Assembly: GCA_000990355.1 (NCBI GenBank) | Contig: LBSX01000004.1 | Location: 1,757-65,756 of the forward strand | Source: Candidatus Magasanikbacteria bacterium GW2011_GWC2_37_14 | GTDB taxonomy: Bacteria > Patescibacteriota > Patescibacteriia > Magasanikbacterales > UBA922 | DNA length: 64,000 nt | Direction: 5' to 3' | In this document: positions 1,139 to 57,139 of the stretch, one piece after another | How positions within the stretch are numbered: the stretch's first letter is position 1 | Layout: each line of letters opens with the position of its first letter | Notes under the pieces: generated by a model | Seen by the model: the letters and a program-made list of their open reading frames with translations, nothing else | The model's database searches: none | Told to the model about the DNA's origin: nothing | Translations under genes and position numbers: made by a program

Positions 1139-3004
1139 ATGAAGAAAATTTTTGATTACATAAAACTTCACAAAATGTATTCTGTAATTATTTTAGTGAT
1201 TTTGTTTTTAGTTGTTTATTTTGCTTGGGGGAAAATTTTTTCAACCACAGCCGTGGTACGTTATGTTACTGCTCAAGCAGAAAAAGGCACTCTACTTTCT
1301 TCAATTACCGGCACGGGCCAGGTTTCTACTTTAAATCAATTAAATATTAAACCACTGGCCTCGGGAATTGTAAAAAGTGTAAATGTAAAAGCTGGGGATA
1401 TTGTTAAAGCCAATCAAATTTTGTTAACTCTAGATCAAAGTAAAGCTTATTTTACACTCTCGCAAGCTCAATCGGCAGTGGCAAGTGCCCAAGCCAATTA
1501 TAATGCTTTAATGAATGTTCCGCAAAAAGATTTGAATACTTTTTTGAATGCGGTAAAAAGTGCGGAATTGGATTTGGCCAAGACTAAAAATGATTCTAAT
1601 TCTAGTATTATTGTTGCAGAAAATACCGTGGTTACTGCCCAACAAAATTTAAAATTAGCAGTTGGAGGAGAAAATAGCGATATTGTTAATTCTGCTTACC
1701 AAGATGCTGTTTTTTATTTAAATAATTTATCAGTTAAATTACATGATACGCTTAATGAAGTTGACAGTATTTTGGGTATTGATAACCCTTTAATTAATGA
1801 TAGTTTTGAACAAATTTTATCAACTTTGGATGAAAGTAAATTAACAATTGCTAATCGAGATTATTATCCAGCTAAAGATACTACTATAATTGTGCAAAAA
1901 ACGGCCAATAGTCTGACTATTAATAGCAGTCATAGCGAGGTAGATCAAACTTTGGTTTTAGCAGGAGATGCTTTGCAAAAAATGTCTGATTTACTAACTA
2001 CTATGACTGACATGCTAAATGCTACTCCAGCTGTGGGAAATTTAACGCAAACAGAATTAGATAGTTTAAAAAGTAGTATTTCCAGTGCTCGCACTACCAT
2101 CAATAGCCAATATACAAGTTTACTTAGTCAAAAAGAGAGTTTAACAGATGCAAAAAATAGCTATACAAATTATCAGATTGCTTACGACAAAGCGGTACGA
2201 GATTTAGCTACTGCTAAATTGAATGCCGAAGTGAGTATTAATACCAAAGAAGTAGCTTTACAAACGGCTAAAGATAATTTAAATGAAAAACAAAATCCTA
2301 GTGAAGATGACATCAGAATCACGCAAACCAAATTAGCTTCGGCGCAAAATCAATTGGCTAGTGCTGTGGAAGATTACAATAATATGATTATTCGCGCGCC
2401 ATTTGAAGGAGAAGTGGCCGAGATTTCGGTTTTAAGAGGCGATCAAATTGGTGAATCAACTTCGGTAGCCACATTAATTACCGAACAAAAAATTGTCGAG
2501 ATTCCTTTAAATGAAGTGGATATTGCCAAAATAAAATTGGGACAAAAAGCCAGTTTAAATTTTGATGCATTTTCTGATTTAACTATTACTGGTCAGGTGA
2601 TTGAAATTGATACTTTGAGCACTGTTAGCCAGGGGGTGGTTAGTTACAATATTAAGATTGCTTTTGATGTACAAGATGAAAGAGTTAAACCTGGTATGAG
2701 TGTAAGTGCTAGCATTATTTTAAGTAGTAAACCAGATGTTTTGTTGGTACCTACTGGAGCAGTTAAAACTCAAAATGGCGCTAATTATGTAGAAGTATTA
2801 GTAAATAATTTACCAGTGCAAAAAAACGTAGAAATTGGTGAAGAAGGCGACACCATGACCGAAATTTTGAGTGGTTTAACCGAAGGTGAAGAGATAATTA
2901 CCCAAAAAATAACTACTTCGGCTACAACTGTTAGTGCAGGTACTCCTGCTTTTGGTGGTGGCAATAGTGCTTTAAGAACTTTGGGCGGTGGCGGTGGAAG
3001 ATAA
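1139..3004 (+). CDS. HlyD/MacA-family periplasmic adaptor subunit of ABC efflux system
   Basis: N-terminal TM, long coiled-coil, HlyD-type motif IRAPFEGEVAEISVLRGDQIGE, Gly-rich tail. Confidence 0.7.
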   Translation: MKKIFDYIKLHKMYSVIILVILFLVVYFAWGKIFSTTAVVRYVTAQAEKGTLLSSITGTGQVSTLNQLNIKPLASGIVKSVNVKAGDIVKANQILLTLDQSKAYFTLSQAQSAVASAQANYNALMNVPQKDLNTFLNAVKSAELDLAKTKNDSNSSIIVAENTVVTAQQNLKLAVGGENSDIVNSAYQDAVFYLNNLSVKLHDTLNEVDSILGIDNPLINDSFEQILSTLDESKLTIANRDYYPAKDTTIIVQKTANSLTINSSHSEVDQTLVLAGDALQKMSDLLTTMTDMLNATPAVGNLTQTELDSLKSSISSARTTINSQYTSLLSQKESLTDAKNSYTNYQIAYDKAVRDLATAKLNAEVSINTKEVALQTAKDNLNEKQNPSEDDIRITQTKLASAQNQLASAVEDYNNMIIRAPFEGEVAEISVLRGDQIGESTSVATLITEQKIVEIPLNEVDIAKIKLGQKASLNFDAFSDLTITGQVIEIDTLSTVSQGVVSYNIKIAFDVQDERVKPGMSVSASIILSSKPDVLLVPTGAVKTQNGANYVEVLVNNLPVQKNVEIGEEGDTMTEILSGLTEGEEIITQKITTSATTVSAGTPAFGGGNSALRTLGGGGGR

Positions 3005-3019
3005 ACAGGAGGATATTAT

Positions 3020-3703
3020 ATGATTAAATGTATTGATATTACAAAAATTTATAACACTGGAGGCAGTGAAGTGCCTGTACTCAAGAATGTTAATTTTGAA
3101 ATAAATAAAGGTGAATTTGTGGCAATTGTGGGTCCTTCGGGATCGGGCAAATCTACCTTAATGCATATTTTGGGGGCATTGGATAGGCCGACTAGTGGTA
3201 AATATTTTTTGGATAACAAAGATGTTTCTTCTTTAACCGACGAAGAGTTAGCTCAAATTCGTTCGCAAAAAATTGGTTTTGTTTTTCAATCTTTTAATCT
3301 TTTACCACGTTCATCGGTCCTGCGTAATGTTTCATTGCCTTTTATATATGATAAAAAAGTTTCTAGAAATGAACGTCAGGCAAAAGCAGAAAAAGCTTTA
3401 TTAGCTGTTGGTTTAGAAAAAGATCGTTGGCAACATTTATCCAACCAATTGTCTGGTGGCCAAATGCAACGTGTGGCAATTGCTCGGGCACTGGTCAATG
3501 ATCCCGATATTATTTTGGCCGACGAGCCGACGGGTAATTTGGATTCCAAAACCGGTGAAATTGTTTTGGAAACTTTTCGTAAAATTAATCAAGAAAAAGG
3601 ACATACTATTATTTTGATTACTCATGATAAAAGAGTAGCCAGTTTTGCCAGGCGAACAATTGAAATAAAAGATGGTTTAATTGTGGCTGATTTTAAAAAT
3701 TAA
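3020..3703 (+). CDS. ABC transporter ATP-binding protein (MacB/LolD-like)
   Basis: Walker [13 protein letters not shown] signature [15 protein letters not shown], Walker [12 protein letters not shown]. Confidence 0.9.
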
Positions 3704-4931
3704 TTATATGCAAGCTCCCGATTTATTTGAAGAAACCTTTTTTTCTTTATCGGCCAACAAATCACGGTCGATTTTAACAATTTTGGGAATTGTAATTGGT
3801 ATTGCTTCGGTAATTACCATGATTTCCGTTGGTCAAGGAGCCGCGCAAGATATTACTGGTCGTATTGAATCACTAGGTACTAATCTTTTAGTAATAAGTC
3901 CTGGTTCAGGACAGCAAGCCGGTACAATTGTACGTGGTGGCGCAGGTTCGGCGGAAACTTTAAAAATTTCCGATGCCGAAGCAATTAGAGCCAGTGTCCC
4001 CGAAGCAGAATTAGTAGCCCCGGTAGTAAATTCTCGTAAACAAGTAATCGCCAAAGGACAAAATACCAATACTAGTATTTATGGAATTGAGACTAATTAT
4101 TTTACAATTAAAGCTATTGTTGTAGAAAATGGTTCAGCATTTACTGATCGACAAAATACTTCTCGCGCCAAGGTGGCAGTTTTGGGTCCAACTGCGAATA
4201 CTGATTTATTTGGCGAGGGTTTTAATTCCGTAGGACAAAAAATAAAAATCAACAATCAAGAATTTACGGTGATTGGTATAACGCAAGCCAAAGGCGGAAC
4301 TGGTTTTGGCAATGCTGATGATTTAATTTATATTCCACTTAACACTGCCTTACAATACATTTCTGGTAGTGATTCTTTGAGTAGTATTAATGTTCAAGTG
4401 AGTGAAGCTGAACTAATGACTGTGGCTCAAGCGGAAATTCAAGATTTGTTATTGCAAAGACATCGAATAAATGATCCGGCTAATGCTGATTTTAGTATTG
4501 TTAGTCAAGCAGATCTATTAAGTTCTTTATCCTCGGTTAGTGATACTTTAACCATGCTACTTGGAGCAATTGGGGGAATTTCTTTAATCGTCGGTGGTAT
4601 TGGGATTATGAATATGATGTTGACTACAGTTACCGAACGTACTCGAGAAATTGGATTGCGAAAATCTTTGGGTGCTACCAAAAATGATATTAGCTGGCAG
4701 TTTTTGGCTGAATCGGTAGCGCTAACTTTTATTGGTGGAATAATTGGTATTATGATTGGTTATTTGGCATCTTTGGCAGTAACCAAATTTAGTGGTATTA
4801 ATACAAATATTACCATGTCTTCGGTTTTGATTGCCGTGGGTGTATCTGGTTTAATTGGCATTTTGTTTGGTTACTATCCGGCTCGCCGGGCTGCCAAAAT
4901 GGATCCAATTGAAGCTTTACGTTATCAATAA
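3681..4931 (+). CDS. ABC transporter permease, FtsX/MacB family
   Basis: MacB-type periplasmic domain followed by C-terminal four-TM FtsX-like region. Overlaps the ATPase gene. Confidence 0.8.
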   Translation: MWLILKINYMQAPDLFEETFFSLSANKSRSILTILGIVIGIASVITMISVGQGAAQDITGRIESLGTNLLVISPGSGQQAGTIVRGGAGSAETLKISDAEAIRASVPEAELVAPVVNSRKQVIAKGQNTNTSIYGIETNYFTIKAIVVENGSAFTDRQNTSRAKVAVLGPTANTDLFGEGFNSVGQKIKINNQEFTVIGITQAKGGTGFGNADDLIYIPLNTALQYISGSDSLSSINVQVSEAELMTVAQAEIQDLLLQRHRINDPANADFSIVSQADLLSSLSSVSDTLTMLLGAIGGISLIVGGIGIMNMMLTTVTERTREIGLRKSLGATKNDISWQFLAESVALTFIGGIIGIMIGYLASLAVTKFSGINTNITMSSVLIAVGVSGLIGILFGYYPARRAAKMDPIEALRYQ

Positions 4932-4934
4932 CAT

Positions 4935-4964
4935 AAAACCTCCCCAAGTGGGAGGTTTTATGTT
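4935..4964 (+). terminator. intrinsic terminator after efflux operon
   Basis: Hairpin aaaacctccc-caagt-gggaggtttt followed by a T-run. Confidence 0.55.
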
Positions 4965-4975
4965 AAAATAGTTTC

Positions 4976-7228
4976 ATGGCGTTAAATACCTCACTCGTAC
5001 AATTAAATACTTTTAGTAAGAGTTTGAGTGCCAAATTAAAAAAAATTGGACTTTTTTCAGTACAAAATTTACTATTTTATTTGCCTTTTCGTTATGAAGA
5101 CTATAGTAAAGTTTTAACAATTGCTAATTTAACCCCAGGAGAACAAGTAACCATTAAAGCGCAAATTAGTGCGATTGCGGTAAAACGTGGTTGGAAATAT
5201 AGTAAAATGTTTACTGAAGCCATTGCCGAAGATGAAACTGGAAAAATAAAATTAATGTGGTTTGGCCAACCCTTTATTGCCAAAGTTTTAAAAATGGGTG
5301 ATGTGGCTTATTTTTCGGGAATTGTGAAAGATGGTAAATTGGGTTTGAATATGGTGAACCCAGTTTATGAAAAAGATACCCCCCCTAGCCCCCCCTTATT
5401 AAGGGGGGGGAAACAGAACGACACCCTTGTTAAAGTGGGAAATCGGATACATACTGCTAGAATTGTGCCAATTTATCATACAACCGAAAAATTAACGCAA
5501 AAACAATTACGTTATTTAATTAGCCAAGTTATTGGTTTGGCAACAGAAATCAAAGAATGGCTGCCTGAAGAATTTTTGGAAAGTGCAGATTTAGTACCAT
5601 TAAGTGAAGCGATTCGGGGAATTCATTTTCCCGAAGATGAAACTGATTTAGTACAAGCGCAAAAACGTTTAAAGTTTGGGGAAATTTTTATTTTACAATT
5701 GCGAGCGGAAATGATTCGCCAGTCTTTAAAAAGAGCTAATGCGCCAATTATTAGTTTTCAAGAAAAAGCAGTAAAAGAATTTGTAGCTAAATTGCCATTT
5801 GAACTTACCGCACCACAAAAAGTAGCTAGTTGGGAAATATTAAAAGACTTAAACAAAAACGAACCAATGAATCGTTTGTTGGAAGGGGATGTGGGCAGTG
5901 GTAAAACTGTAGTAGCGGGTTTGGCACTTTACAATACAGTTTTAAATGGTTATCAGGGAGTGATTATGGCACCGACGGAGATTTTGGCAAGGCAACATTT
6001 TGAATCTTTAAAACAAATTTTGGGTGATAATGTTAGTTTGGCGTTATTAACACGTTCTCAATTTACAGTTTACAATTTACAATTTACAAAAAATTTCCAA
6101 TTTTCAAATGACAAATTAAGTAAACAAAAAATTGTTGAGTTAATCAAAAATGGGGAAATTGATGTGGTAGTTGGTACTCATTCATTGCTCTCAGATGATG
6201 TACAATTTAAACATTTGGGTTTGGCAGTGGTAGATGAACAACATCGTTTTGGTGTGGAACAACGTAAAATTTTGCGTGAAAAAGCTGGTGGTGGGCGACT
6301 TAACCCACATTTTTTATCAATGACCGCTACGCCAATTCCGCGTTCGTTCGCACTCCTGCTTTATGGTGATTTGGATTTATCAATTATTAATCAATTACCA
6401 GTTGGTCGCAAACCAATTAAAACCCGGGTAGTAGAACCTTATAATCGGCAGAAAGCTTATGAATTTATTAAAGAACAAGTAAAACTAGGCAGGCAAGTGT
6501 TTGTAATTTGTCCGCTAATTGAATCATCTGTCATCCCGACCGAGTCTCGCGACGAGTGGAGCCTGCCTGCCGGCGAGGCAGGGGATCCCTCGACTTCGCT
6601 TCGCTACGCTCGGGATGACAAAAGTGACGAGAAAAAAACAGTAATGAGTGAATATAAAAAACTTTCCGAAGAAATTTTTCCAGATTTAAAAGTTGCTTAT
6701 TTACATGGAAAATTGCCCGCCCGAGGCGGGTCCGCCTTGGGCGGAAAGCCATCAAAAGAATCCGTCATGGAAGCTTTTAGAAATGGGGAAACAAATATTT
6801 TGGTTTCTACTTCGGTAATTGAAGTAGGAGTAAATATTCCCAATGCGAGTGTAATGATGATTGAAGGAGCCGAAAGATTTGGTTTGGCACAATTACATCA
6901 GTTTCGCGGTCGGGTAGGCCGGGCCGAGCATCAATCATATTGTTTACTATTTTCTAATACAGAAAACGAGAAAGCCTTAGCACGTTTAGAATTTTTTCAA
7001 AATAATATTGATGGTTTTAAGGTAGCAGAATATGATTTGGAAACTAGGGGACCGGGTGAAGTGTATGGTACGGCGCAATCTGGTTTGGGTAATTTTAAAT
7101 TAGCGACTTTAAAAGATATTAAATTAATAAAACTAGCGCGGGATTTGGTAAGAGATATAGATTTTAACCAGTACCCGATTTTTAAAGAAAAAGTAAAAGA
7201 ATGGGAAAAAGGAGTGCATTTGGAGTAA
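4976..7228 (+). CDS. recG: ATP-dependent DNA helicase RecG (carrying in-frame palindromic-element insertions)
   Basis: Wedge domain, GDVGSGKTVVA, DEQHRFGV, helicase C motifs QLHQFRGRVGRA. Extra Pro/Gly-rich segments correspond to the repeat insertions. Confidence 0.9.
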   Translation: MALNTSLVQLNTFSKSLSAKLKKIGLFSVQNLLFYLPFRYEDYSKVLTIANLTPGEQVTIKAQISAIAVKRGWKYSKMFTEAIAEDETGKIKLMWFGQPFIAKVLKMGDVAYFSGIVKDGKLGLNMVNPVYEKDTPPSPPLLRGGKQNDTLVKVGNRIHTARIVPIYHTTEKLTQKQLRYLISQVIGLATEIKEWLPEEFLESADLVPLSEAIRGIHFPEDETDLVQAQKRLKFGEIFILQLRAEMIRQSLKRANAPIISFQEKAVKEFVAKLPFELTAPQKVASWEILKDLNKNEPMNRLLEGDVGSGKTVVAGLALYNTVLNGYQGVIMAPTEILARQHFESLKQILGDNVSLALLTRSQFTVYNLQFTKNFQFSNDKLSKQKIVELIKNGEIDVVVGTHSLLSDDVQFKHLGLAVVDEQHRFGVEQRKILREKAGGGRLNPHFLSMTATPIPRSFALLLYGDLDLSIINQLPVGRKPIKTRVVEPYNRQKAYEFIKEQVKLGRQVFVICPLIESSVIPTESRDEWSLPAGEAGDPSTSLRYARDDKSDEKKTVMSEYKKLSEEIFPDLKVAYLHGKLPARGGSALGGKPSKESVMEAFRNGETNILVSTSVIEVGVNIPNASVMMIEGAERFGLAQLHQFRGRVGRAEHQSYCLLFSNTENEKALARLEFFQNNIDGFKVAEYDLETRGPGEVYGTAQSGLGNFKLATLKDIKLIKLARDLVRDIDFNQYPIFKEKVKEWEKGVHLE

Positions 7229-7233
7229 ATGAT

Positions 7234-7360
7234 TTTCCCCCTTAACAAAGGGGGACCTGCCTACCGGCAGGCAGGTTAAGGGGGTTGTTGGCGAATATCC
7301 CCCCCGCCTGCCATGCCTGGCACTGGCGGGCAGGCCTAGCCCCCCTTTACCAAGGGGGGT
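7234..7360. repeat. array of C-run/loop/G-run mini-hairpins (family 2) plus a CCTGCCTNCCGGCAGGCAGG hairpin
   Basis: tcccccTTAACAAAGggggac is identical to the module inside ugd. ggggttgttggcgaatatccccc is the reverse complement of a module at 56467-56490. Confidence 0.7.
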
Positions 7361-7374
7361 AAATTGACAAGGTC

Positions 7375-7403
7375 TTGACAAAAGTCGTTATTTGTGCCAT
7401 AAT
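7375..7403 (+). promoter_or_regulatory. sigma-70-like promoter of rnpB
   Basis: TTGACA (7375-7380), 17-nt spacer, extended -10 TGcCATAAT (7395-7403). Confidence 0.55.
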
Positions 7404-7409
7404 ATTTAG

Positions 7410-7750
7410 GTGATTTTCAATTTAGGATCCAACCATAAAGTTGGTGTTGTCGCGAAAGTGACAGGATTGAAATCACTATCTTTCCACTGTGCTGGAGGAG
7501 AAACCCCATGAGGTGTAAGGAAGCGCGAGCCGCAGGTGGTGTCCCCGCGGGTCAAACTCCGGGGAAGAAGCCGAGGAGCAAGTTTTCCTATCGTAGCCTC
7601 CGCGTCCGCGTGGAGACTGTTGGGGTGGCCGACCTCAGTGAGATGTCGGAACACCGCCCGGCGTGCTGTACGACGGATGAAGACCACGTCCTTCTGCAAA
7701 TGGGGTTCAACCCCAGTGAGATGCCGGGTCGCAAAGATCCTTCGTAAAGC
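7410..7750 (+). ncRNA. rnpB: RNase P RNA, bacterial type A-like
   Basis: GC-rich (~57%) island with no credible ORF. GGAGGAgAAA + AACCCCAU (7494-7509) can pair with AUGGGGUU (7700-7707), as in P4. AAACUCC...GGAGCAAG (7554-7582). CAGUGAG (7636-7642) and GGAUGAAGAC (7675-7684) match the E. coli M1 P15-P18 region. P1-like AGGAUC/GAUCCU pairs the two ends. Boundaries are approximate. Confidence 0.65.
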
Positions 7751-7898
7751 CCTCCTTTGTCCGGCCAGTTCTTGGCCGAAGTTCTTTCTTACCTCCCCCC
7801 AAACGAGCTTGGTGGGGCTCTTCAGACCGCCAACTCGCTTCCTCTATAATTTCAGTTCGAGATTACTGGTGAAGCGAGCGGCCTGAAGTTTGTAAATT

Positions 7899-7931
7899 AA
7901 AAACATCCACCTCTTCGGCGGATGTTTTTTT
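7899..7931. terminator. bidirectional intrinsic terminator (rnpB transcript / minus-strand gene 7938-9398)
   Basis: Hairpin aaacatccacc-tcttc-ggcggatgttt followed by seven T's on the plus strand. Confidence 0.6.
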
Positions 7932-7937
7932 GTAAAA

Positions 7938-9398
7938 TTATTCTGGTAAAATTTTAGTATTTGAAGGACATTGATTTTTATCAACAGTCACATATAAATT
8001 TGTAACACCCAAGCCCATTACTGTGGCCGCAGTTCCAAAAGTGTAATCTCTTGGCGCACCACGAAATACTTTTTTCCCACCAAGACCGTACTTGGTGCCT
8101 GCGGGAAAGGTGGTATCTGGCCAAGTGTTTGGGTCACATTTAAATATATCGAGTGCTTGTTCCAAACCACCACTACCATTGGCATTACCAAAGTAGATCA
8201 TTAGAATTTTAATTTCGTCTGGGGCATTTTTACATTTGCTTTCAATTAATTTTAAATGGTACTTGATCATATTTACACCAATAGCAGTATTCACAGCAGG
8301 ATTTTTTATGGTAAGTGTATCACACAGACTTTCATTAAGTTTCATTTGTTTTAAATTTTCTTTGCAATATTCTGGTAATGTTTGAAAAAGTCCAGTATAG
8401 CCTATTTTGTTTACGATGTCGGCGTTTAAACCAGATTCTCTGTGCGAAATTCCTTTTAAAACTCTCCAATCTATTCCTATACAATTTGCAAAAGATTGGA
8501 ATACGCTATCGTATTGAGTAGAAGAAATAGGTTGGGCTTTCCAGTAGCCAACACTGTGTCCTTCCAAAATTAATTTGCTTAAATCAGCCCCAGTTACATA
8601 CGCCACTCTTAAATTTTTAAATTCCACCAAATTTGGATTGATACGATAAAGTAGGGAATAAGAACCAACTGCCAAAAGTATGCCAATGATTGCTTCACCA
8701 ATGCGTTTTTTGGAATGACTAATTTTTTCGGCTTCGCCAGCCGACATTACCCAGCCTAAGCCGGCACCAATAATCATCACAATGGAAATAACGGCCATAA
8801 CCGCGATAGCATATTTGTAAATGGCAGCAATGTATTCACCTAAAAAAGGAATATACATGTAAGTACTACCATTTTCTTCAACAGTTTTTATCTCACTAAA
8901 ATTTACTCCAGGAATACTAACACGGGGAGTGGGTTTAATAGTTTTTACTTCATCCAAAAGTTTTATAGTAGCAGGAGTAGCATCGGAGTTAACCAAATAA
9001 TCCCAAAAACTTTGGTCTTTAATAGGTAAAGGAAATTTTGAATTAGTGGCGTTTCTTTTATCTATACAATAGTCCAAGTCCCAGGTCATGTCTTCTCCAT
9101 CGTGGCATTTCCAGTCTTCGGGGACTCCACCAAATTCATCAGAGCAGGTTTTACTGGTTCCTGGATTAAAAGGAACCCACTCGCCATATACTTCTCCACA
9201 GTCACAGAAGGCCAGGGTTTTTCCATTTTCTTCTTTGTTACTGTTTTCACAATCATCGCTTTTGCATTCAGAATTATTATTACAAGGTTGACCAAAAGCT
9301 TTGGTACCAACGGCAAAAGTAAGACTGGGGAATAGACAGAAAATTAAAATAATAATAGACAAAGATTTTTTCATAGATTTTCTTCTGGATCCCCGCAT
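7938..9398 (-). CDS. secreted/membrane protein with Cys-rich N-terminal domain and C-terminal lytic transglycosylase (SLT/GH23-like) domain
   Basis: Signal peptide, TM helices, SLT-like catalytic motif HRESGLN...GYTGLFQ. Confidence 0.5.
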   Translation of the reverse strand: MRGSRRKSMKKSLSIIILIFCLFPSLTFAVGTKAFGQPCNNNSECKSDDCENSNKEENGKTLAFCDCGEVYGEWVPFNPGTSKTCSDEFGGVPEDWKCHDGEDMTWDLDYCIDKRNATNSKFPLPIKDQSFWDYLVNSDATPATIKLLDEVKTIKPTPRVSIPGVNFSEIKTVEENGSTYMYIPFLGEYIAAIYKYAIAVMAVISIVMIIGAGLGWVMSAGEAEKISHSKKRIGEAIIGILLAVGSYSLLYRINPNLVEFKNLRVAYVTGADLSKLILEGHSVGYWKAQPISSTQYDSVFQSFANCIGIDWRVLKGISHRESGLNADIVNKIGYTGLFQTLPEYCKENLKQMKLNESLCDTLTIKNPAVNTAIGVNMIKYHLKLIESKCKNAPDEIKILMIYFGNANGSGGLEQALDIFKCDPNTWPDTTFPAGTKYGLGGKKVFRGAPRDYTFGTAATVMGLGVTNLYVTVDKNQCPSNTKILPE

Positions 9399-12689: not shown

Positions 12690-13043
12690 TTAGTTACTAA
12701 AAACTTTTAACAATTTATTACATTCTAAATAATATTTTTTATATTCGTTTTCTATAAACAAATTACTAATAAATCCCAGATTTTCTTTTTCTTCTTCTAA
12801 ATGTAAAATCATTAGTTTGGCTCGAACTTTTATAACAGCTTGCAAATAATAATTTATATCTAAACTAGAATCATTTGGATTTTGGTATATTTTAAGTAAT
12901 TGATTTTTAAAATAACCAAGTTCTTCTTTTATTTGTTGGCGTTTTTGGGCTAGTGGTTGTTTGGGGGTATTTTTTTGTTGTTGTGTTTTTTTCAACACCG
13001 TTGCCCATTGTTGTTCGAAGTTTGGCATATTTTTGGTTGTCAT
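12690..13043 (-). CDS. hypothetical protein; start codon lies in the terminal TGTCAT of a MITE
   Basis: ORF only. The ATG is the reverse complement of the element's left terminus. Confidence 0.3.
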   Translation of the reverse strand: MTTKNMPNFEQQWATVLKKTQQQKNTPKQPLAQKRQQIKEELGYFKNQLLKIYQNPNDSSLDINYYLQAVIKVRAKLMILHLEEEKENLGFISNLFIENEYKKYYLECNKLLKVFSN

Positions 13044-13137
13044 GCTGAATCCTGAAATAAATTCAGGACAAGTACCATTTCAGCATCCCAGGGGATCCTG
13101 AAACAAGTTCAGGATGACAATTGTTTTCAGGATGACA
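13038..13137. mobile_element. MITE-like element, family 1 (copy A)
   Basis: Termini TGTCATGCTGAA...TTCAGGATGACA (right end duplicated). Two hairpin modules, GTCATGCTGAA/TTCAGCATC and GATCCTGAAAC/GTTCAGGATGAC. Confidence 0.75.
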
Positions 13138-18606: not shown

Positions 18607-18688
18607 TGTCATGCTGAATCCTGAAATAAATTCAGGACAAGTACCATTTCAGCATCCCCAGGGATCCTGAAACAAGTTCAGGATGACA
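18607..18688. mobile_element. MITE-like element, family 1 (copy B)
   Basis: Near-identical to copy A (TGTCATGCTGAATCCTGAAATAAATTCAGGACAAGTACCATTTCAGCATCCC...GTTCAGGATGACA). Confidence 0.75.
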
Positions 18689-20546: not shown

Positions 20547-20719
20547 ACAATATTGTACAATGTATATGTATTATAGCACCTTTGTTGTTGTCAGAGAATA
20601 GTTAAAATTTTCAATTTACAATTTACAGTTTCCTGTGAATTATCAATTTTGTAATTTACAATATTGAAAATTGGTAATTGTAAATTTATTGAAAATTGAT
20701 TATTGTTAAAATGTAAATT

Positions 20720-21093: not shown

Positions 21094-21276
21094 TTATAGC
21101 ATATTTGGGTTAAATTGTCAATAGGACAGTATGTGCATAGTTTATTAGTGATTTTTTTGAAAATATCTTAATTTTGTATACACTAGTGTATACAAAAATA
21201 GTATTTTAAATTAGCAAAATAATTAGGTAAATAGTAAAAATGTATAGGCTAGTGTATACAAACGTCTGTCATTGCG

Positions 21277-21457
21277 AGGAAGTGCCTGTAAGAGTACGAC
21301 GAAGCAATCCCACTGTTGTCATTTTCGCGAATGTGGAGATCCAGAAATCGTTGGCCATTTGCCTGGATTCCTGCCGGAGTTTATCCTCGTGTAGACGGGG
21401 GCAGGAATGACAATAATGGGATTGCTTCACCCCGCTCGGGCGGGGTTCGCAATGACA
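21277..21457. mobile_element. composite/nested MITE (family 3 element containing a TGTCATTTTCGCG...AATGACA element)
   Basis: Outer termini TGTCATTGCGAGGAAG...CGCAATGACA. Internal cgacgaagcaatccc / gggattgcttcacc inverted copies. Inner element 21317-21412 has its own TGTCAT/ATGACA ends. Confidence 0.65.
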
Positions 21458-22289: not shown

Positions 22290-22347
22290 TGTCATGCTGA
22301 ATTTATTTCAGCATCCCAGGGGGTCCTGAAACTAGTTCAGGATGACA
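22290..22347. mobile_element. MITE-like element, family 1 (minimal copy C)
   Basis: TGTCATGCTGAATTTATTTCAGCATCCCAGGGGGTCCTGAAACTAGTTCAGGATGACA. Confidence 0.75.
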
Positions 22348-23371: not shown

Positions 23372-23467
23372 TGTCATTCTGAATATGTTTGTCATGCTGA
23401 ATTCACCTGCCTATCGGCAGACAGGTTTCAGCATCCCAGGGGATCCTGAAACTAGTTCAGGATGACA
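23372..23467. mobile_element. MITE-like element, family 1 (copy D, with CCTGCCTATCGGCAGACAGG hairpin insert)
   Basis: TGTCATTCTGAA...GTCATGCTGAATTCACCTGCCTATCGGCAGACAGGTTTCAGCATCCCAGGGGATCCTGAAACTAGTTCAGGATGACA. Confidence 0.7.
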
Positions 23468-23530
23468 GTTATGTTCAGCATGACAATGAATAATTCATTT
23501 GCCTGTGGTACTGTGTGGCTAAGATGGTTT

Positions 23531-27575: not shown

Positions 27576-27697
27576 TGTCATGCTGAATTTATTTCAGCAT
27601 CTTTTCGTTAAATAATTACACTAAGTAAATATAATCTTAAGAAAGATCCTGAAACCCTTCGGCATGAGCTCAGGTCGAATGCAAGTTCAGGATGACA
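27576..27697. mobile_element. MITE-like element, family 1 (copy E, long variant)
   Basis: TGTCATGCTGAATTTATTTCAGCATC, then AAGTAAATATAATCTTAAGAAAGATCCTGAAAC...CTCAGGTCGAATGCAAGTTCAGGATGACA. The ATG of the downstream ORF is the terminal ATGACA. Confidence 0.75.
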
Positions 27698-29755
27698 AAT
27701 TCTATGAATAAAATTATTGAAAAAATTGCCAAGTATCTCATCATCGCTTCGTTTTTCGTCCCGCTTATTGTTTTGCCAACCAGCTATATTTTTCCCTTCA
27801 TCGTTCCTAAGATTTTATGGTTTCGGAGTATTAGTTTGTTAATTTTTGCTAGTTATTTATTATTGTTATTTAGCAATTGGCAAAAATTTAAAATTAAATT
27901 TAATTTTTTAAATATTGCTGTTGGTTTGTTTTTTTTAAGTTTTATTGTTTCCACTTTTGTGGGAGTGGATTGGTACAAAAGTTTTTGGGATTCTCACGAA
28001 AGAATGCTGGGTTTGTTTACTTTGTTTCATTATTTACTTTATTACTTGGCTGTTAGCCGTCTCATTAATGGTTGGCCAGAATGGAAAGTGATCTTGCGTT
28101 GGTTTTTGGGTGCTGGGTTAATTGTAATGGTAATTGGCGGCATGCAACAAATTAATCCTGAACTTTTAATTAATCGTGGTGCTCATCGTGTTTCGGCCAC
28201 TCTTGGTAATGCGATATATTTTTCTGGTTATGGTTTGTTTTTATTTTTGCTTGGCTTGCTTTTGGCTATAAAAGAAAAAAAAACAACCCTTCGGCTGGGC
28301 TCAGGACAAGCCTTCTGGTTTTGGTATGCTTGTATAGGTAGTTTGTTTGGTTTTTTGGGAATATTTTGGGGTGGTACTCGTGGTACTACTTTGGGGTTGT
28401 TAGTGTCTTTGGCGGTTATATTTTTTGGTTATGTAATTACTACCAAAGAACACAAAAAATTAAGACAAATGTTATTGTTTTTATCGATATTTTTTATAGT
28501 AGTTTTGGGAATATTGTTTGTTTATCGGAAAAATGAAACCATAAAAAGTATTCCTACACTTGGCAGGTTGTTAAATGCTTCGATTACCGAAGGTAGTGGT
28601 CTTACGCGTTATATGGCTTGGGGGATTGCGGTTGAAGGCTTTAAAGAAAAACCAGTGTTTGGTTGGGGGCCAAATAATTATTATTATGCTTTTAATAAAT
28701 ATTATAACCCAGCGTTTTTAGAACATGGTTGGACTGAAACCTGGTTTGACAATGCTCATAGTGTCATTTTTAATACTTTGGCAGTACAAGGATTTACTGG
28801 TTTGGGTGCCTATCTATTAATGTTTATAGCTGGGGCTTGGATGTTAATTAAGGCTTATAGAAATAAAGGAATAGACCAGCATATTTTAGTATTAAGTATG
28901 GCATTTTTAGCTGGCCATTTTGTGCACAATGCTACAGTATTTGAAAATCCTACGTCATATTTATATTTCTTTTTCTTTTTGGCATTTATAAATTCACAAA
29001 CTGCAGATAACAAACAGCAGATAACAGATAACAAAAAAACATCAGAAATTTCTGTTGGTTTGCTAGTGACAATCGGTCTGATTTTATTGCTCATCATTTA
29101 CTCTACGAATATTAATCCTGGACGGGCAAATAATAATACTCTGCAAACTTTAATGGCTTTTTCTACTGGCAAGGATGTTTTTGGCCCTTATGAAATAGCC
29201 CAAAGTACTCCCACACCTCATATAGATGATATTCGTAGTGATTTTGCTCGTACTGCTATTCAAGCTTTGCCACAAATTTATCAAAGTAAACAAACAGATT
29301 TGGCCAACAAATTAGCTGATTTGGTAATTAATGAATTACAAAAGAATCTAGTTTTACACCCAATGGATATTCGTACTAATCTGGCTTTAAGTCAGGTTTA
29401 TGGTTTACGTGCTCAGGCAGAAAACAATGGGCAGTGGCTTCTAAAAAGTGAACAAATTTTAAATCAAGCTTTAAGTTATTCACCAAAAAGACAACAAGTG
29501 CTTTTTGTATTATCTAGTGTAGAATTAGGTTTGGGCAAAGTGCCTGAAAGTTTAAAATTAATCCAGCAAGCCTTGGATAGTGATAATAAAATTGCCGAAG
29601 GTTGGTGGCGCTTGGCAGTTACTTATGCGCAAATTGGCAACAAAAAAATGGCTATAGAAACCATTAATAAAGCAAAAAGTTTAAATATTGAGCCTACCGA
29701 AGAACAACAAGCTTTACTTGATCAGGTTATGGGTGTAAGTAGCACTCAAAAGTAG
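27692..29755 (+). CDS. O-antigen ligase-like (Wzy_C) polytopic membrane protein with C-terminal TPR repeats
   Basis: About 12 TM helices with a large periplasmic loop (WFDNAHSVIFNTLAVQG), then TPR-like C-terminal region. True start may be the second ATG at 27704. Confidence 0.55.
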   Translation: MTNSMNKIIEKIAKYLIIASFFVPLIVLPTSYIFPFIVPKILWFRSISLLIFASYLLLLFSNWQKFKIKFNFLNIAVGLFFLSFIVSTFVGVDWYKSFWDSHERMLGLFTLFHYLLYYLAVSRLINGWPEWKVILRWFLGAGLIVMVIGGMQQINPELLINRGAHRVSATLGNAIYFSGYGLFLFLLGLLLAIKEKKTTLRLGSGQAFWFWYACIGSLFGFLGIFWGGTRGTTLGLLVSLAVIFFGYVITTKEHKKLRQMLLFLSIFFIVVLGILFVYRKNETIKSIPTLGRLLNASITEGSGLTRYMAWGIAVEGFKEKPVFGWGPNNYYYAFNKYYNPAFLEHGWTETWFDNAHSVIFNTLAVQGFTGLGAYLLMFIAGAWMLIKAYRNKGIDQHILVLSMAFLAGHFVHNATVFENPTSYLYFFFFLAFINSQTADNKQQITDNKKTSEISVGLLVTIGLILLLIIYSTNINPGRANNNTLQTLMAFSTGKDVFGPYEIAQSTPTPHIDDIRSDFARTAIQALPQIYQSKQTDLANKLADLVINELQKNLVLHPMDIRTNLALSQVYGLRAQAENNGQWLLKSEQILNQALSYSPKRQQVLFVLSSVELGLGKVPESLKLIQQALDSDNKIAEGWWRLAVTYAQIGNKKMAIETINKAKSLNIEPTEEQQALLDQVMGVSSTQK

Positions 29756-31160
29756 TGGCAAGCATTTTTTCTAGTGTATAATTTGGTTTAGGGCTTTGTG
29801 TAAATTGTTCTTGCAAATTTTGATTAGAAATAATTTTTACTAAATTTTCTGCTAATAATTCCGAAGAAGCAGGGGAGAGCAACCCTGTTTTTTCATGTTC
29901 TATTAATTCGGGAATTCCACCAACGTTTGTGGCGACAATTGGCAAATTAGCGCTTAAAGCTTCCAAAATAGTATAAGGCAAACCTTCTTTTCTGGAAGGT
30001 AAAACAAAAATATCAAAGGCAGTTAAATATTGGCTAGCGTTTTCTATTGAACCAAGTAGGTGAATGTTGTTAATTTGTAATTTGTTTATTTGTTGTTGTA
30101 ATTTTTCATGTTCTGGCCCTTCGCCAATAATGATAAACTTGGCACTGTCATTGCGAGGAGCCTCAAAAGGCGACGAAGCAATCCCGCCGCTTTCATTACG
30201 AGCCTCGCTCGAGGGAGGCGTGGCAATCCCTTGCTTCATTGGGATTGCTTCGTCAGTCAATGCGAATTGACTTCCTCGCAATGACAATAACTTTACCGCC
30301 TCAATCAAAATATCAATTCCTTTAGTTTTATATAAATTAGCAATCGTACCTACCCAAATGTTACCACTGTCATCCCGACCGAGGCTCGCGACGAGTGGAG
30401 CCTGCCTGCCGGCAGAGGCAGGGGATCTCTTGGTGTTGTGTAAGGGATTCCTCGGTTCCGCTCCGCTACACTCGGAATGACAGACAGACGCTAAAAATCG
30501 TCTCGCCACATCTCTTTCCAAAAACACCGTCTTTTCAATTCCCAATGGTATTTTAACTAATTTGTTTTTTGCAATACCTAAATCCATTCCATCCTGATAA
30601 TCTTTATCCGACAAAACAATAATTTTATCTTTTAATTTAGCAGTAATTTTTTCCAAAAATCTATAAATTGTTTTTCTAAAATTGTTCATTGGCTCATTAA
30701 ACACCCAGCCGTGAACCGTGTACACCAACTTGTCATTGCGAGAAGTCCCGAAGGGCGACGAAGCAATCCCAAGTCTAGCAAGAGACCCAACAATTCCTGC
30801 TTTAGAGCTATTTAAATGTACAACATCTGGCTTTAGTGTTTTATATAGTCTTCTAAGCTCAAAAATAGCTAAAATATCATGCCAAGGACAAATTTTTCTT
30901 ACTAAATGTGAAAGTTGTACTATTGTTATGCTATTTGCCCCTCGGCCTGAGCTCGGGACGAAGGTTATCTGTTTTTTGTTATCTGCCAAAATTTTCTCTT
31001 GTAATTCCTTTTTTCTATTCTTTTCTCCCACAGCCACAAAAACCTGCCAGTCAGTAGGTGTATTAATAGCCAAGTCATATACATATCTCTGCGCTCCACC
31101 CCACTCACCTTGGGTAATTACATAGAGAATTTTCTTTTTTTGTTTATCTTGACTTTCCAT
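29727..31160 (-). CDS. GT4-family glycosyltransferase interrupted in-frame by three palindromic elements
   Basis: GT4 C-terminal motif PSRKEGLPYTILEALSANLPIVATNVGGIPELI. Inserted peptides SLARLGIASSPFGTSRNDK, ...ECSGAEPRNPLHNTKRSPASAGRQAPLVASLGRDDS and ...EAIPMKQGIATPPSSEARNESGGIASSPFEAPRNDS. A single ORF is maintained. Confidence 0.6.
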   Translation of the reverse strand: MESQDKQKKKILYVITQGEWGGAQRYVYDLAINTPTDWQVFVAVGEKNRKKELQEKILADNKKQITFVPSSGRGANSITIVQLSHLVRKICPWHDILAIFELRRLYKTLKPDVVHLNSSKAGIVGSLARLGIASSPFGTSRNDKLVYTVHGWVFNEPMNNFRKTIYRFLEKITAKLKDKIIVLSDKDYQDGMDLGIAKNKLVKIPLGIEKTVFLERDVARRFLASVCHSECSGAEPRNPLHNTKRSPASAGRQAPLVASLGRDDSGNIWVGTIANLYKTKGIDILIEAVKLLSLRGSQFALTDEAIPMKQGIATPPSSEARNESGGIASSPFEAPRNDSAKFIIIGEGPEHEKLQQQINKLQINNIHLLGSIENASQYLTAFDIFVLPSRKEGLPYTILEALSANLPIVATNVGGIPELIEHEKTGLLSPASSELLAENLVKIISNQNLQEQFTQSPKPNYTLEKMLATTFECYLHP

Positions 31161-31215: not shown

Positions 31216-31329
31216 TGTCATGCCTAACTAGTCTGTCATGCTGAATTTATTTCAGCATCTCTCTTAATATTAAAAAGATCCTGAAACCTTTCGGCGTGAG
31301 CTCAGGTCGAATGCAAGTTCAGGATGACA
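31216..31329. mobile_element. MITE-like element, family 1 (copy F, long variant with duplicated left terminus)
   Basis: TGTCATGCC...TGTCATGCTGAATTTATTTCAGCATC...GATCCTGAAACCTTTCGGCGTGAGCTCAGGTCGAATGCAAGTTCAGGATGACA. Confidence 0.75.
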
Positions 31330-32296: not shown

Positions 32297-32354
32297 TGTC
32301 ATCCTGAATTTATTTCAGGATCCCTTGGGATTCTGAAACGAGTTCAGAATGACA
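32297..32354. mobile_element. MITE-like element, family 1 (minimal copy G, CCTGAA/CCTGAA variant)
   Basis: TGTCATCCTGAATTTATTTCAGGATCCCTTGGGATTCTGAAACGAGTTCAGAATGACA. Confidence 0.7.
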
Positions 32355-44163: not shown

Positions 44164-45252
44164 TTGGATATGAATTTACTGTTAATTACTCAGAAAATTG
44201 ATAAAGATGATCCAATTTTAGGTTTTTTTCATCGTTGGGTTGAAGAATTTGCCAAACATTGTAAAAAAATAACGGTGATTTGTTTACAAAAAGGCGAATA
44301 TAACTTACCAGATAATGTAAAAGTGTTAAGTCTTGGTAAACCAGCCCAAGGCTGGCCAGCCTTGGGCTGGGAAAAGTATTTGGGAAAATTGAAAGCGTTG
44401 GTAAATTTTTACAAATACATCTGGCAGGAACGAAAAAATTATGATTCAGTATTTGTGCACATGAATCATTTTTACGTTATTTTAGGTGGTTTGTTGTGGA
44501 AATTGTTGGGAAAAAAAGTTGGCTTGTGGTATGCTCATGGGCATGTACCACCAACGTTAAAATTGGTAGAAAAACTTTCTAATATTATTTTCACCTCTAC
44601 AGTTAGTGGTTTTCGTTTACCAAGTAACAAATTAAAAGTAATTGGCCAAGGCATAGATACTGATTTTTTTATTCCCAATTATAATTTAACAAAACAGAAT
44701 AATGATCTTATTTTAATTAGTGTTGGACGAATTAGCGTAATAAAAAATTATGAAACTATTGTTGAAGCACTTGATGTATTATACAATAAGCAAGGAATAA
44801 CCAAACTTAAGTTGATTTTGGTAGGTGAGGCTAGTGTGGGTGCCGAAGACTATGAAAGAAAAATTAGAGAATTTATTGTAAATAAAAATTTATCAGTCGT
44901 AGTTGATTTTGTTGGTGCTTTGCCCAATTACCAAATAGTTGAATATTTGCAAAAAGCGGATTTATTTTTAAACTCTAGTCTTACTGGTAGTTTGGATAAG
45001 GCGATGGTAGAAGCCATGGCTTGTGCTTTGCCAGTTTTAACCTGTAACGAGTCAATGCAGGAAGTATTAGGTGGTTATCAAGATTTGTTAATGTTCCCCA
45101 AAAAAGACAGTCAAAAATTAGCATCTTTGATAAGTTCTTTTTTAAACAAAAGTTTGGAAGAAAGAATTGAACTTGGTTTGGCGTTGAGACAGCTAGTTGT
45201 AGAAAAACATAATTTAAAAGATTTTATTGTTAAAATTTTATCTCAATACTAA
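44164..45252 (+). CDS. GT4 glycosyltransferase
   Basis: GT4 C-terminal region LTGSLDKAMVEAMACALPVLTCNES. Confidence 0.6.
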   Translation: MDMNLLLITQKIDKDDPILGFFHRWVEEFAKHCKKITVICLQKGEYNLPDNVKVLSLGKPAQGWPALGWEKYLGKLKALVNFYKYIWQERKNYDSVFVHMNHFYVILGGLLWKLLGKKVGLWYAHGHVPPTLKLVEKLSNIIFTSTVSGFRLPSNKLKVIGQGIDTDFFIPNYNLTKQNNDLILISVGRISVIKNYETIVEALDVLYNKQGITKLKLILVGEASVGAEDYERKIREFIVNKNLSVVVDFVGALPNYQIVEYLQKADLFLNSSLTGSLDKAMVEAMACALPVLTCNESMQEVLGGYQDLLMFPKKDSQKLASLISSFLNKSLEERIELGLALRQLVVEKHNLKDFIVKILSQY

Positions 45253-56790: not shown

Positions 56791-56821
56791 TAGTTTGCGT
56801 GAACCACGTCCCGAGGGACAA

Positions 56822-57139
56822 ATGGCCAAGGCGAAGTTGCCCTTCCTGTTGCGTTTGGACTTGGGGGAACCCATTCCTTTCTACCCCCAGAGTCCGGTGT
56901 GTACCGAGCCCAAGAGCAAGCGGCGCTACCTCTTGCTCTGCACGAGCTTGATGGTTGGGGTGCTCACCTTCATCGAGAACCCCGCCAAGATCGTGCACTC
57001 CGACGGCGGGCTCGCCAAGCTGATGTTGCCCAAGGGCGCCAAGCCCGGCGACAAGCTGATCCCTGTGCGCAGGAGCCACAAGTTCAAGTGCTACTGGGCC
57101 AGGATCGCTGCGCCCACCACCACCACCACCAAGCGCTAG
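56822..57139 (+). CDS. small (105 aa) protein of unknown function encoded in a compositionally foreign GC-rich island
   Basis: Strong GC3 codon periodicity (AAG, GCC, CCC, ATC, GAG) in this frame only. Ends in a Thr5 run. No recognisable family. Confidence 0.45.
   Translation: MAKAKLPFLLRLDLGEPIPFYPQSPVCTEPKSKRRYLLLCTSLMVGVLTFIENPAKIVHSDGGLAKLMLPKGAKPGDKLIPVRRSHKFKCYWARIAAPTTTTTKR

Follow-up and report, generated by a model that had tools for sequence, protein, structure and literature searches.

In-frame palindromic repeats in recG and other genes of a Candidatus Magasanikbacteria genome

Three GC-rich inserts in recG

The helicase gene recG of Candidatus Magasanikbacteria bacterium GW2011_GWC2_37_14, an ultrasmall groundwater bacterium, carries three short GC-rich inserts, which we examined together with the rest of a window of 64,000 nt from contig LBSX01000004.1; coordinates below are those of the window. 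The gene product matches the solved T. maritima RecG (1GM5) with an E value of 5e-139, its helicase motifs are invariant in an alignment with 17 relatives (alignment A1), and the reading frame is open throughout, all three inserts included. Codon alignments were made with a close recG, found on a syntenic JGI contig (L001; 83% nucleotide and 87% protein identity), and with a more distant one (L002). The dN/dS ratio between the window gene and that of L001 is 0.13 (dS 0.72), which indicates that recG is alive and under purifying selection.

A sequence-only reading of this DNA had proposed that three GC-rich segments interrupt recG while keeping its frame, and all three are present where it had placed them (Table 1). 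Its boundaries for insert 2 (6529-6620) stood, whereas the codon alignment with L001 sharpened those of insert 1 from 5378-5413 to 5381-5416 and those of insert 3 from 6714-6750 to 6716-6745. As that reading expected of close relatives, L001 has insert-free alleles: inserts 1 and 3 correspond to clean gaps of 12 and 10 codons. Insert 1 is also a clean 12-codon gap in L002 and was not found in L001, L002 or any of the 17 relatives in alignment A1. The view that the segments were simply added thus holds for inserts 1 and 3 but not for insert 2. In the closest relatives, the insert 2 site is occupied by a different, AT-rich loop of ~30 aa ('..EIEIINYPENN..' or '..NEIEIINYPxNxL..'), so that a native loop was apparently lost and the element gained in the window lineage; more distant RecGs have almost nothing at this position (alignment A1). 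Judged from these alignments, insert 2 is an insertion plus replacement and no clean addition.

Table 1. Coordinates of recG, its inserts and related elements in the 64-kb window.
Feature	Position	Strand	Description
recG ORF	4976-7228	+	host of three inserts; 750 aa, intact; Pfam RecG_wedge, DEAD, Helicase_C, RecG_dom3_C
Insert 1	5381-5416	+	36 nt = 12 codons, PPSPPLLRGGKQ
Hairpin of insert 1	5389-5409	+	CCCCCCC-TTATTAA-GGGGGGG, with CCTAG just before
AT-rich heptamer array	6059-6089	+	CAATTTA x 4.4, tandem; encodes part of QFTVYNLQF; 16-aa gap in 1GM5
Insert 2	6529-6620	+	92 nt, palindromic; terminal inverted repeats TGTCATCCCGACCGAG / (C)GCTCGGGATGACA; read as VIPTESRDEWSLPAGEAGDPSTSLRYARDD
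Hairpin nested in insert 2	6562-6582	+	CCTGCCTGCCGGCGAGGCAGG; separate family, CCTGCC..CCGG..GGCAGG
Insert 3 (DH30)	6716-6745	+	30 nt = 10 codons; CCCGCC-CGA-GGCGGG TCCGCC-TTG-GGCGGA; read as PARGGSALGG
GC-hairpin cluster	7236-7362		intergenic, directly after the recG stop; four hairpins; members of the insert-1 family and of CCTGCC..GGCAGG
Ten intergenic TGTCAT...ATGACA elements	13038-13119, 18607-18688, 21267-21457, 22290-22347, 23372-23485, 27576-27697, 31234-31329, 32297-32354, 57364-57514, 62750-62843		23372-23485 nested
GT4 glycosyltransferase gene	29727-31160	-	477 aa vs. ~390 in relatives; four in-frame elements
Elements in the GT4 gene	30936-30960, ~30731-30770, 30368-30482, 30146-30286		30368-30482 belongs to the insert-2 family
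Second double hairpin	44341-44370	+	perfect 30-nt palindrome, CCAGCCCAAGGCTGG CCAGCCTTGGGCTGG; read as PAQGWPALGW
Composite hairpin element	56440-56520	+	81 nt, in-frame in the UDP-glucose dehydrogenase gene (55221-56711); read as SVSPLTKGDEGGYSPTTPQPPFIKGGN

Insert 2, whose ends can also be given as TGTCATCC..GGATGACA, folds at -28.4 kcal/mol (z -4.45 vs. shuffled controls). Insert 3, hereafter DH30, can form two hairpins of 15 nt each (6-bp stem, 3-nt loop) or a single long hairpin of -14.8 kcal/mol (z -4.44). The fold of insert 1 is no better than that of its shuffles (z -1.0), because any sequence made of a C-run and a G-run folds.

The encoded peptides (LPARGGSALGGK and DEWSLPAGEAGDPSTSLR contain inserts) had been read as surface-loop additions between the helicase motifs, and both structural comparisons are consistent with this. 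All three insert sites are gaps in the alignment to 1GM5. In an AlphaFold model that is otherwise confident (mean pLDDT 80, pTM 0.73), the inserts coincide with the only long segments of predicted coil with pLDDT <50: residues 141-170, modelled between the wedge domain and the helicase core, residues 517-548, modelled between the two RecA-like domains, and residues 586-588, modelled inside loop 577-593 of domain 2. We also collected 120 RecG relatives and arranged them in a simple neighbour-joining tree. Loops of variable length lie in this clade at about aa 143, 368-378, 412, 437, 526 and 580, and lineage-specific inserts rich in Pro, Gly, Ser, Ala and Arg concentrate at six loop positions among the 120 relatives. 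Seven relatives (P0017, P0032, P0043, P0054, P0055, P0078 and P0087) carry a whole GxxExxY / PDDEXK_3 domain (PF13366, ~150 aa) in-frame in helicase domain 1, entering at about aa 433-442 in the numbering of the window protein; these RecGs are 835-903 aa long, and the domain has the look of an in-frame insertion of far greater size at a further hot-spot loop.

An AT-rich repeat in recG had been said to recur in the intergenic region near 20.6 kb, and a 16-mer of the heptamer array does occur exactly at 20612-20627 (5 matches in the window vs. 0.43 expected). The array encodes a clade-specific segment, common to close relatives, and is therefore older than the GC-rich inserts. In L001, this array contains an in-frame hairpin insert of its own (21 nt, CCTGCCTCGCCGGCAGGCAGG, read as PASPAGR). 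Heptamer arrays of this kind (CAATTTA or GGAAATT, read as ..NFQF..) extend over 6059-6108 in recG and lie at 20600-20700 between genes, and they adjoin many DH30 copies elsewhere (flanks in L016, L036, L047, L053 and L106); such arrays could attract insertions, or could be a repeat family in their own right.

Could the GC-rich segments, too, be native, lineage-specific loops, produced by ordinary mutation or duplication, whose likeness to repeats is superficial? The RecG clade does have several length-variable loops, and residues 366-381, encoded by the AT-rich array, behave like a native loop present clade-wide (alignment A1). Nevertheless, we consider this explanation very improbable for the inserts. 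They are 64-83% GC in a genome of ~35% GC, the palindromic structure of inserts 2 and 3 is significant, L001 lacks the inserts at 83% identity, DNA nearly identical to theirs occurs in unrelated genes and in intergenic DNA, and the DNA of insert 3 is 30/30 identical between recG genes whose synonymous sites are saturated.

Repeat families and other interrupted genes in the window

The family of insert 2 has TGTCATYCYGA...TCRGRATGACA as its boundaries, with inverted-repeat ends of 11-16 nt. Within the window, its 16-mer inverted-repeat end occurs 5 times (0.01 expected) and the half-site TGTCATYCYGA 32 times (2.1 expected). Thirteen paired TGTCAT...ATGACA copies are present in the 64 kb, with sizes of 58-191 nt and without an open reading frame (ORF) of their own. 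TGTCAT half-sites are ~16 times denser in the window (0.45 per kb) than in 0.9 Mb of other, mainly patescibacterial loci (0.028 per kb). The TGTCATCCCGACCGAG family was absent from the same 0.9 Mb and, by blastn, from PLSDB plasmids, and on these searches the insert-2 family appears lineage-restricted.

The copies of this family differ according to where they lie. The ten intergenic ones are AT-richer (35-52% GC) and have stops in nearly all six frames, whereas the intragenic ones are GC-rich variants that are open in two or three of the six frames, as would be expected from a selective filter acting on random insertions. Insert 2 and the copy at 30368-30482 are highly identical except for a 23-nt indel, with the similarity ending at the inverted repeats; the latter copy, in the GT4 gene, is read on the opposite strand from that in recG and so yields a different peptide.

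Further families are represented in recG. Insert 1 shares CTAGCCCCCC..TT..AAGGGGGG with an intergenic stretch at 7335-7360 and with 56490-56516 in the UDP-glucose dehydrogenase gene. The sequence CCCCCCTTNNNAAGGGGGG occurs 9 times in the window (0.02 expected). The hairpin nested in insert 2 has relatives at 7258-7277, 23404-23425, 30401-30422, 57258-57275 and 57479-57496, and comparison of 23390-23467 with 22290-22347 reveals it as an insertion inside another element. The same CCTGCC..GGCAGG hairpin is found in the recG of L001, and in locus L169 it interrupts a tRNA-Asn fragment upstream of an ORF for a GIY-YIG nuclease. The cluster that follows the recG stop folds at -39.1 kcal/mol (z -4.2) and is missing from L001, in which recG and the next gene are 42 nt apart.

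Three other genes of the window are interrupted in a similar way. The GT4 protein has segments that are missing from relatives 64-77% identical to it (alignment A3); a glycosyltransferase of the window equals KKQ27885.1 (locus prefix US42). The second double hairpin lies in-frame within a glycosyltransferase gene (44164-45252) and folds at -17.1 kcal/mol (z -4.9); a generic double-hairpin detector run on the window returned only this palindrome and recG insert 3. The composite element in the UDP-glucose dehydrogenase gene is of the same family as insert 1 and the cluster downstream of recG, and the Pfam match to UDPG_MGDP_dh_C breaks at residue 399, where the 81-nt insert interrupts it.

Since the genome was assembled from a metagenome and assemblers can be misled by short repeats, we considered whether errors of sequencing or assembly, such as chimeras caused by repeats, had produced the inserts. 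This is the least probable of the explanations weighed here. All of the intragenic copies in the window, at least nine, keep the frame. All three recG inserts are also found in another assembly (P0001, a 72-kb ENA contig), whose RecG differs from that of the window by K431R; at this residue, the sole one separating P0001 from KKQ27868.1 (P0241), the window protein agrees with the latter. In addition, the same 30-nt insert 3 is present at the same RecG codon in independent JGI, NCBI, ENA and Logan assemblies.

The surroundings of these genes have some further features. Between recG and the next gene, and likewise missing from L001, lies a GC-rich unit of ~520 nt (7375-7935) with a near-consensus promoter (TTGACA-17-TG-CATAAT, 7375-7403) and a terminal hairpin plus T-run at ~7903-7932. 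Its predicted RNA fold of -202.5 kcal/mol compares with -172.5 +/- 6.6 for shuffles (z -4.5), which makes it a candidate structured RNA; it is without a match to Rfam, tRNA/tmRNA or phage. A search of the whole window against Rfam gave nothing at gathering thresholds, an E-value search of 7200-8000 gave weak, chance-level matches only, and a tRNA/tmRNA scan found no genes in the 64 kb. On the other side of recG, L001 has an extra gene of 177 aa without a Pfam match (4521-5054 of that contig) between a MacB-type permease gene and recG, where the window has a gap of only 44 nt (4932-4975). The UDP-glucose dehydrogenase gene is followed by a strongly GC-rich stretch (56803-57231, GC islands at 56991-57056 and 57094-57152) with overlapping ORFs of ~140 aa on both strands and a CACCAC... 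run.

The DH30 double hairpin in other genomes

We scanned for exact matches to the 20-mer core of DH30, using one genome per species, and found it in at least 119 loci; counts from this collection scan are lower bounds and not a census. Nearly all matches are in low-GC genomes of many Patescibacteria classes, among them Magasanik-, Nomura-, Buchanan-, Uhr-, Kerfeld-, Vogel- and Saccharibacteria, Paceibacterota and others. DH30 is also found in genomes labelled 'uncultured Gammaproteobacteria' (L033, L003, L005, L008, L018, L020 and others), but the recG of L033 is essentially identical to that of the Magasanikbacteria type (P0016), so that these labels look unreliable.

Among the copies in low-GC loci, 39 of 97 lie inside ORFs of at least 250 aa. 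The DH30 consensus is free of stops in three forward and three reverse registers. Thirty-six of these 39 copies are nevertheless in one register, [PS]-A-x-G-G-[SP]-A-x-G-G, which reads PARGGSALGG one way and SAQGGPASGG the other way (binomial p ~2e-14 vs. one third). This bias is the best evidence here for translation and filtering at the protein level. Intragenic copies are antisense in 29 cases and sense in 7. In the flanks of 100 copies, the three positions before the element are T (59%), T (79%) and N, and those after it are A, n, A (82%) and a.

We considered and rejected the idea that DH30 is a DNA-uptake signal: there is one copy in 64 kb, and the copies are insertions and not motifs accumulated by mutation. 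In L044, a Paceibacter locus, tandem units of ~165 nt made of several GC hairpins (4760-5200, with reverse-strand copies at 2714-3045) combine a CCGCC hairpin, CCTGCCTGCCGGCAGGCAGG and DH30. Composite hairpin arrays therefore exist that resemble the cluster downstream of recG but are longer.

One codon of RecG is a recurrent site. The DH30 peptide, or a decayed form of it, follows HGK[LM] at site 580 in ~15 of the 120 relatives, in at least eight separated lineages that have sister sequences without the insert. All of these copies have the same orientation, which is the minority orientation overall. The DH30 DNA in the window recG is identical to that of L203 at 30/30 positions and to that of L002 at 29/30, although the proteins are only ~61% identical. 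The sequence-only reading had taken the presence of the same segment in orthologues of unrelated lineages as a sign of native sequence. Insert 3 does occur in such orthologues, but its distribution is patchy, with sisters lacking it, and DNA identity of 29-30/30 in genes whose products are ~61% identical argues for mobility and not for native sequence.

The flanks of filled and empty sites also differ. In filled alleles, the conserved downstream Lys is preceded by S or T in 14/14 cases, while empty alleles have E or D in 104/106. Over the 24 nt that follow insert 3, the window matches L203 at 19/24 positions and L001 at 16/24 plus an indel. The empty site in the L001 recG reads AAGTTG^AAAGCA (CATGGTAAGTTGAAAGCA), and nothing is duplicated in the filled site. 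In the simplest reading of these sequences, the element would prefer targets of the TTG^AAA type, and recombination with co-conversion would have spread the filled allele segment; alternatively, site-specific insertion may have happened independently in the lineages, with compensatory change afterwards.

Positive selection for a recruited function of the inserted peptides, as flexible linkers or as interaction sites that tune RecG, could in principle account for the retention of such loops. Whole subclades (P0054/55/78/87 and P0090/109/120) have kept the PARGGSALGG loop, and a neighbouring substitution consistently accompanies it. The same elements, however, occur in unrelated enzymes and in non-coding DNA, insert-free sister sequences are common, a decayed copy exists in P0025 (PGHSTRSASGR) and the structure model gives the loops no predicted structure. 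We regard recruitment as improbable.

The gene found beside several DH30 copies in other genomes encodes a bare GIY-YIG catalytic domain of ~80 aa (PF01541, E 3e-14 to 3e-16), which in NCBIfam gave a sub-threshold match to group I intron endonucleases and no name. In loci selected by DH30, 8/13 small GIY-YIG ORFs lie within ~150 nt of a DH30 copy. We also sampled in the reverse direction, picking 80 metagenome loci by the small GIY-YIG protein alone. A strict DH30-like pattern is present <=30 nt upstream of the GIY-YIG ORF in 23/71 usable loci, and a perfect GC double hairpin ends 9-28 nt upstream of the ATG (in one case 49 nt) in 32/57 loci, where chance would give 0.006 per ORF. The stems of these hairpins vary (CCGCC, CAGCC, CGGCC, GCGCC) and match variants of the solo copies, including the CCAGCC palindrome of the window.

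Downstream, a tRNA gene starts within ~250 nt of the GIY-YIG ORF in 37/54 loci, mostly after 3-24 nt; 31 of the 37 are tRNA-Ser and 3 are tRNA-Tyr. The first 11 nt of this tRNA are repeated upstream of the ORF in 15/34 loci, with a D-loop interruption of the form GGCC|hairpin|GAGTGG. At other loci, the tRNA fragment extends as far as the anticodon loop, where CTTG|hairpin|AAAAC is read across the junction. This is the same TTG^AAA context as at the RecG site and in the flank consensus of DH30 (TTN^A(A)AA), which agrees with the anticodon-loop junction of tRNA-Ser(UGA). The hairpin thus sits exactly at the junction of the duplicated tRNA-Ser 5' fragment. The complete arrangement, a 5' fragment of tRNA-Ser, -Tyr, -Asn or -Cys plus hairpin, the GIY-YIG ORF and the intact tRNA, forms a mini-cassette in L122-L201 and in L012, L035, L046, L068, L073, L080, L087 and L115; in L087, the unit of hairpin plus fragment is tandemly repeated. 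From these sequences we read the hairpin, the nuclease gene and the replacement 5' part of the tRNA as a putative cassette inserted into tRNA-Ser genes.

Because double hairpins occur at loop positions in tRNA-derived sequence, and because the hairpins are strong, one may ask whether the elements are untranslated, either removed as mini-introns or bypassed in the manner of the Magnusiomyces mitochondrial 'byp' elements, so that mature RecG lacks the loops. Insertions in rRNA genes of Patescibacteria are reportedly absent from the mature RNA (Brown et al. 2015). For the elements studied here, we find this explanation very unlikely. An element that is removed or bypassed need keep neither frame nor register, yet the intragenic copies are net multiples of 3 and free of stops, 36/39 DH30 copies are in the mildest register, and the intragenic inverted-repeat copies are open-frame variants; the register bias of DH30 in particular argues against both RNA-level removal and ribosomal bypass. 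The interrupted tRNA pieces are 5' fragments beside an intact tRNA and not working genes. A mini-intron in the anticodon loop of tRNA-Ser, suggested by three loci, was dropped on the same grounds, as ARAGORN and the sequences show 5' fragments beside intact tRNAs. The byps, which are likewise mobile GC-rich hairpin inserts in protein genes of an AT-rich genome, are said by Lang et al. (2014) to disrupt the frame and to be bypassed in translation; the elements studied here retain the frame and a mild register, which speaks for their being translated.

Interpretation and comparison with known systems

Our best explanation, to which we assign a probability of about 0.85, is that three unrelated families of small, non-coding, palindromic mobile repeats have entered recG in at least three insertions, and that those now seen are in-frame survivors of selection. 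Surviving insertions would be those whose length keeps the frame, whose register is free of stops and whose position is tolerated (the linker from the wedge domain to the helicase, the linker between the RecA-like domains and a loop of domain 2). Their translation would give disordered loops with much Pro, Gly, Ala, Ser and Arg, in a helicase that is still functional. For DH30, the most likely route would be a break at a TTG^AAA-like site and repair copied from a donor already holding the hairpin. Gene conversion of this homing-like kind, with the small GIY-YIG nuclease beside the hairpins as its probable trigger, would by the same route spread a filled recG allele between lineages. On the sequence comparisons above, the phenomenon is genome-wide and radiation-wide and not special to recG.

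Several points weigh against this explanation. No target-site duplication is visible in any of the insert families. The intragenic copies bounded by inverted repeats are 92, 115 and 141 nt long, or 2, 1 and 0 mod 3, so that keeping the frame must have needed extra adjustments or deletions. We infer the translation of the inserts, as we do the nuclease activity and the direction of events (gain vs. precise loss). The GIY-YIG gene was not found in the 64-kb window, and a Pfam scan of 30 ORFs in it found no transposase or other candidate mobilising enzyme. The link to GIY-YIG is a positional association seen in the sequences of other genomes, and while it would cover insert 3 and the CCTGCC hairpin, inserts 1 and 2 lie outside it. 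The association of S/T in place of E/D with filled alleles could reflect compensatory selection rather than co-conversion, and the recurrence at the RecG codon could be due in part to ancestral presence with repeated precise loss.

The strongest competing view, which we hold to be a real possibility though somewhat short of an even chance, is that these are classical non-autonomous elements of the miniature inverted-repeat transposable element (MITE) or repetitive extragenic palindrome (REP) type, moved by cut-and-paste or copy-and-paste, without homing or gene conversion, through a transposase or a REP-associated tyrosine transposase (RAYT)-type Y1 enzyme encoded elsewhere in the genome. Insert 2 has terminal inverted repeats of 13-16 nt, sharp boundaries and 13 paired copies in 64 kb, and elements are nested in one another. 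IS200/IS605 and REP systems insert into single strands in a manner linked to replication, and the 29:7 orientation bias of DH30 would fit this. Like REPs and MITEs, the elements are short palindromes or are bounded by inverted repeats, exist in many copies and have no gene of their own, and there is a candidate partner gene flanked by repeats, RAYT in the case of REPs and perhaps GIY-YIG here.

Bacterial MITEs such as ERIC, Correia, BOX and Nezha normally have target-site duplications and a parent insertion sequence (PMC10969869). The TGTCAT family has the terminal inverted repeats, small size, lack of an ORF and many copies of a MITE, but no consistent direct repeat flanks its 13 copies (a GTT/GTT pair at the nested copy is ambiguous), and Pfam found no parent insertion sequence with TGTCAT ends and no transposase among 30 ORFs of the window, which covers 64 kb of the genome. 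REPs are by definition extragenic, are specific to a species or genus and are tied to a Y1 transposase (PMC10969869). Here, many copies are intragenic, including both double hairpins of the window, and the only gene consistently beside DH30 encodes a GIY-YIG nuclease (PF01541) and no Y1 transposase. Moreover, the recurrence in RecG at the same site and in the same orientation, with shared changes in the flank, looks more like allele conversion.

In behaviour, by analogy, the elements appear closest to the Rickettsia palindromic elements (RPEs). RPEs (Ogata et al. 2000) are described as selfish palindromic repeats of ~100-150 bp found in-frame in housekeeping genes, with one conserved peptide per family (PMC10969869). 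The likeness lies in small, palindromic, selfish repeats that sit in-frame in unrelated housekeeping genes of a reduced, AT-rich genome, with peptides at positions compatible with the fold, several coexisting families and intergenic copies as well. The sequence-only reading had called the recG inserts RPE-type, and this stands for their in-frame behaviour; the inserts themselves belong to three unrelated families, one of only 30 nt, which are probably not RPE families. The elements in the window and its relatives range from 21 to ~190 nt, the insert-2 family is read on either strand as different peptides (recG vs. the GT4 gene), and DH30 is conserved across a radiation, whereas RPEs belong to one genus and the Patescibacteria are an unrelated host lineage. 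Given the host phylum and the element sizes, membership in an RPE family is implausible; the likeness would be one of function and is no evidence of homology.

In form alone, the closest counterparts of DH30 would be the GC clusters of yeast mitochondria (PMC4478555) and the double-hairpin elements (DHEs) of Allomyces and Schizosaccharomyces (PMC10085805). Fungal DHEs exist as identical copies in different species and lie mostly in intergenic DNA and rRNA genes (PMC10085805). With DH30 they share GC-rich (double) hairpins of tens of nucleotides in an AT-rich genome, at intergenic and intragenic positions, and identical copies across species; the fungal elements differ in being organellar and not bacterial. 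The GC cluster of yeast var1 is in-frame and spreads by gene conversion. We know of no description of a codon-register bias or of an adjacent GIY-YIG/tRNA-Ser cassette for DHEs.

With GIY-YIG homing systems, the DH30 loci of other genomes share a small GIY-YIG ORF at a fixed distance from the hairpin, a defined site in a conserved gene (tRNA-Ser) with the target restored, a patchy distribution and filled RecG alleles with common flank changes. They differ in that a 30-nt hairpin, and not a nuclease gene, intron or intein, spreads into protein genes, and in that the ORF is only ~80 aa, a bare catalytic domain without a recognisable DNA-binding domain. As a tentative proposal, less probable than not, DH30 and the CCTGCC..GGCAGG hairpin would be the mobile ends of a selfish cassette of ~300 bp that homes into the D-loop or anticodon loop of tRNA-Ser genes throughout the Patescibacteria; where its nuclease cut look-alike sites (such as TTG^AAA) in protein genes, the repair would copy the hairpin alone and leave an in-frame scar of 10 codons. 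Transformation and gene conversion would carry these filled alleles from species to species, and the solo hairpins of protein genes would then be abortive or ectopic products of the cassette process.

The full-text literature that we searched holds no description of such elements in Patescibacteria, in agreement with the sequence-only reading, which had considered the recG inserts undescribed for this kind of genome. The proposed selfish cassette (hairpin, 80-aa GIY-YIG gene and tRNA 5' part) may also be previously undescribed. We therefore see here RPE-like behaviour in a lineage new to it, possibly with movement by a homing-type mechanism; what could take it beyond the RPE pattern is the link to GIY-YIG and tRNA-Ser.

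Much of bacterial diversity belongs to the Patescibacteria, whose tiny genomes are regarded as streamlined. The coding sequences of this window suggest otherwise: core genes have been lengthened repeatedly by mobile hairpins, in recG, in three sugar-metabolism genes and in many proteins of relatives. For annotation, this means odd Pro/Gly/Arg-rich loops, inflated protein lengths and broken domain matches; phylogenetics is affected by homoplastic indels with identical DNA, and structure prediction is affected as well. With its defined sequence, register bias and recurrent target in RecG, DH30 is a possible model for the interplay of selfish DNA and protein evolution. If the cassette reading is true, variation in protein length in this radiation would be driven in part by abortive homing. 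The association with a minimal GIY-YIG nuclease at tRNA-Ser genes points to a way in which such short palindromes may move, a question that also concerns mitochondrial GC clusters and DHEs.

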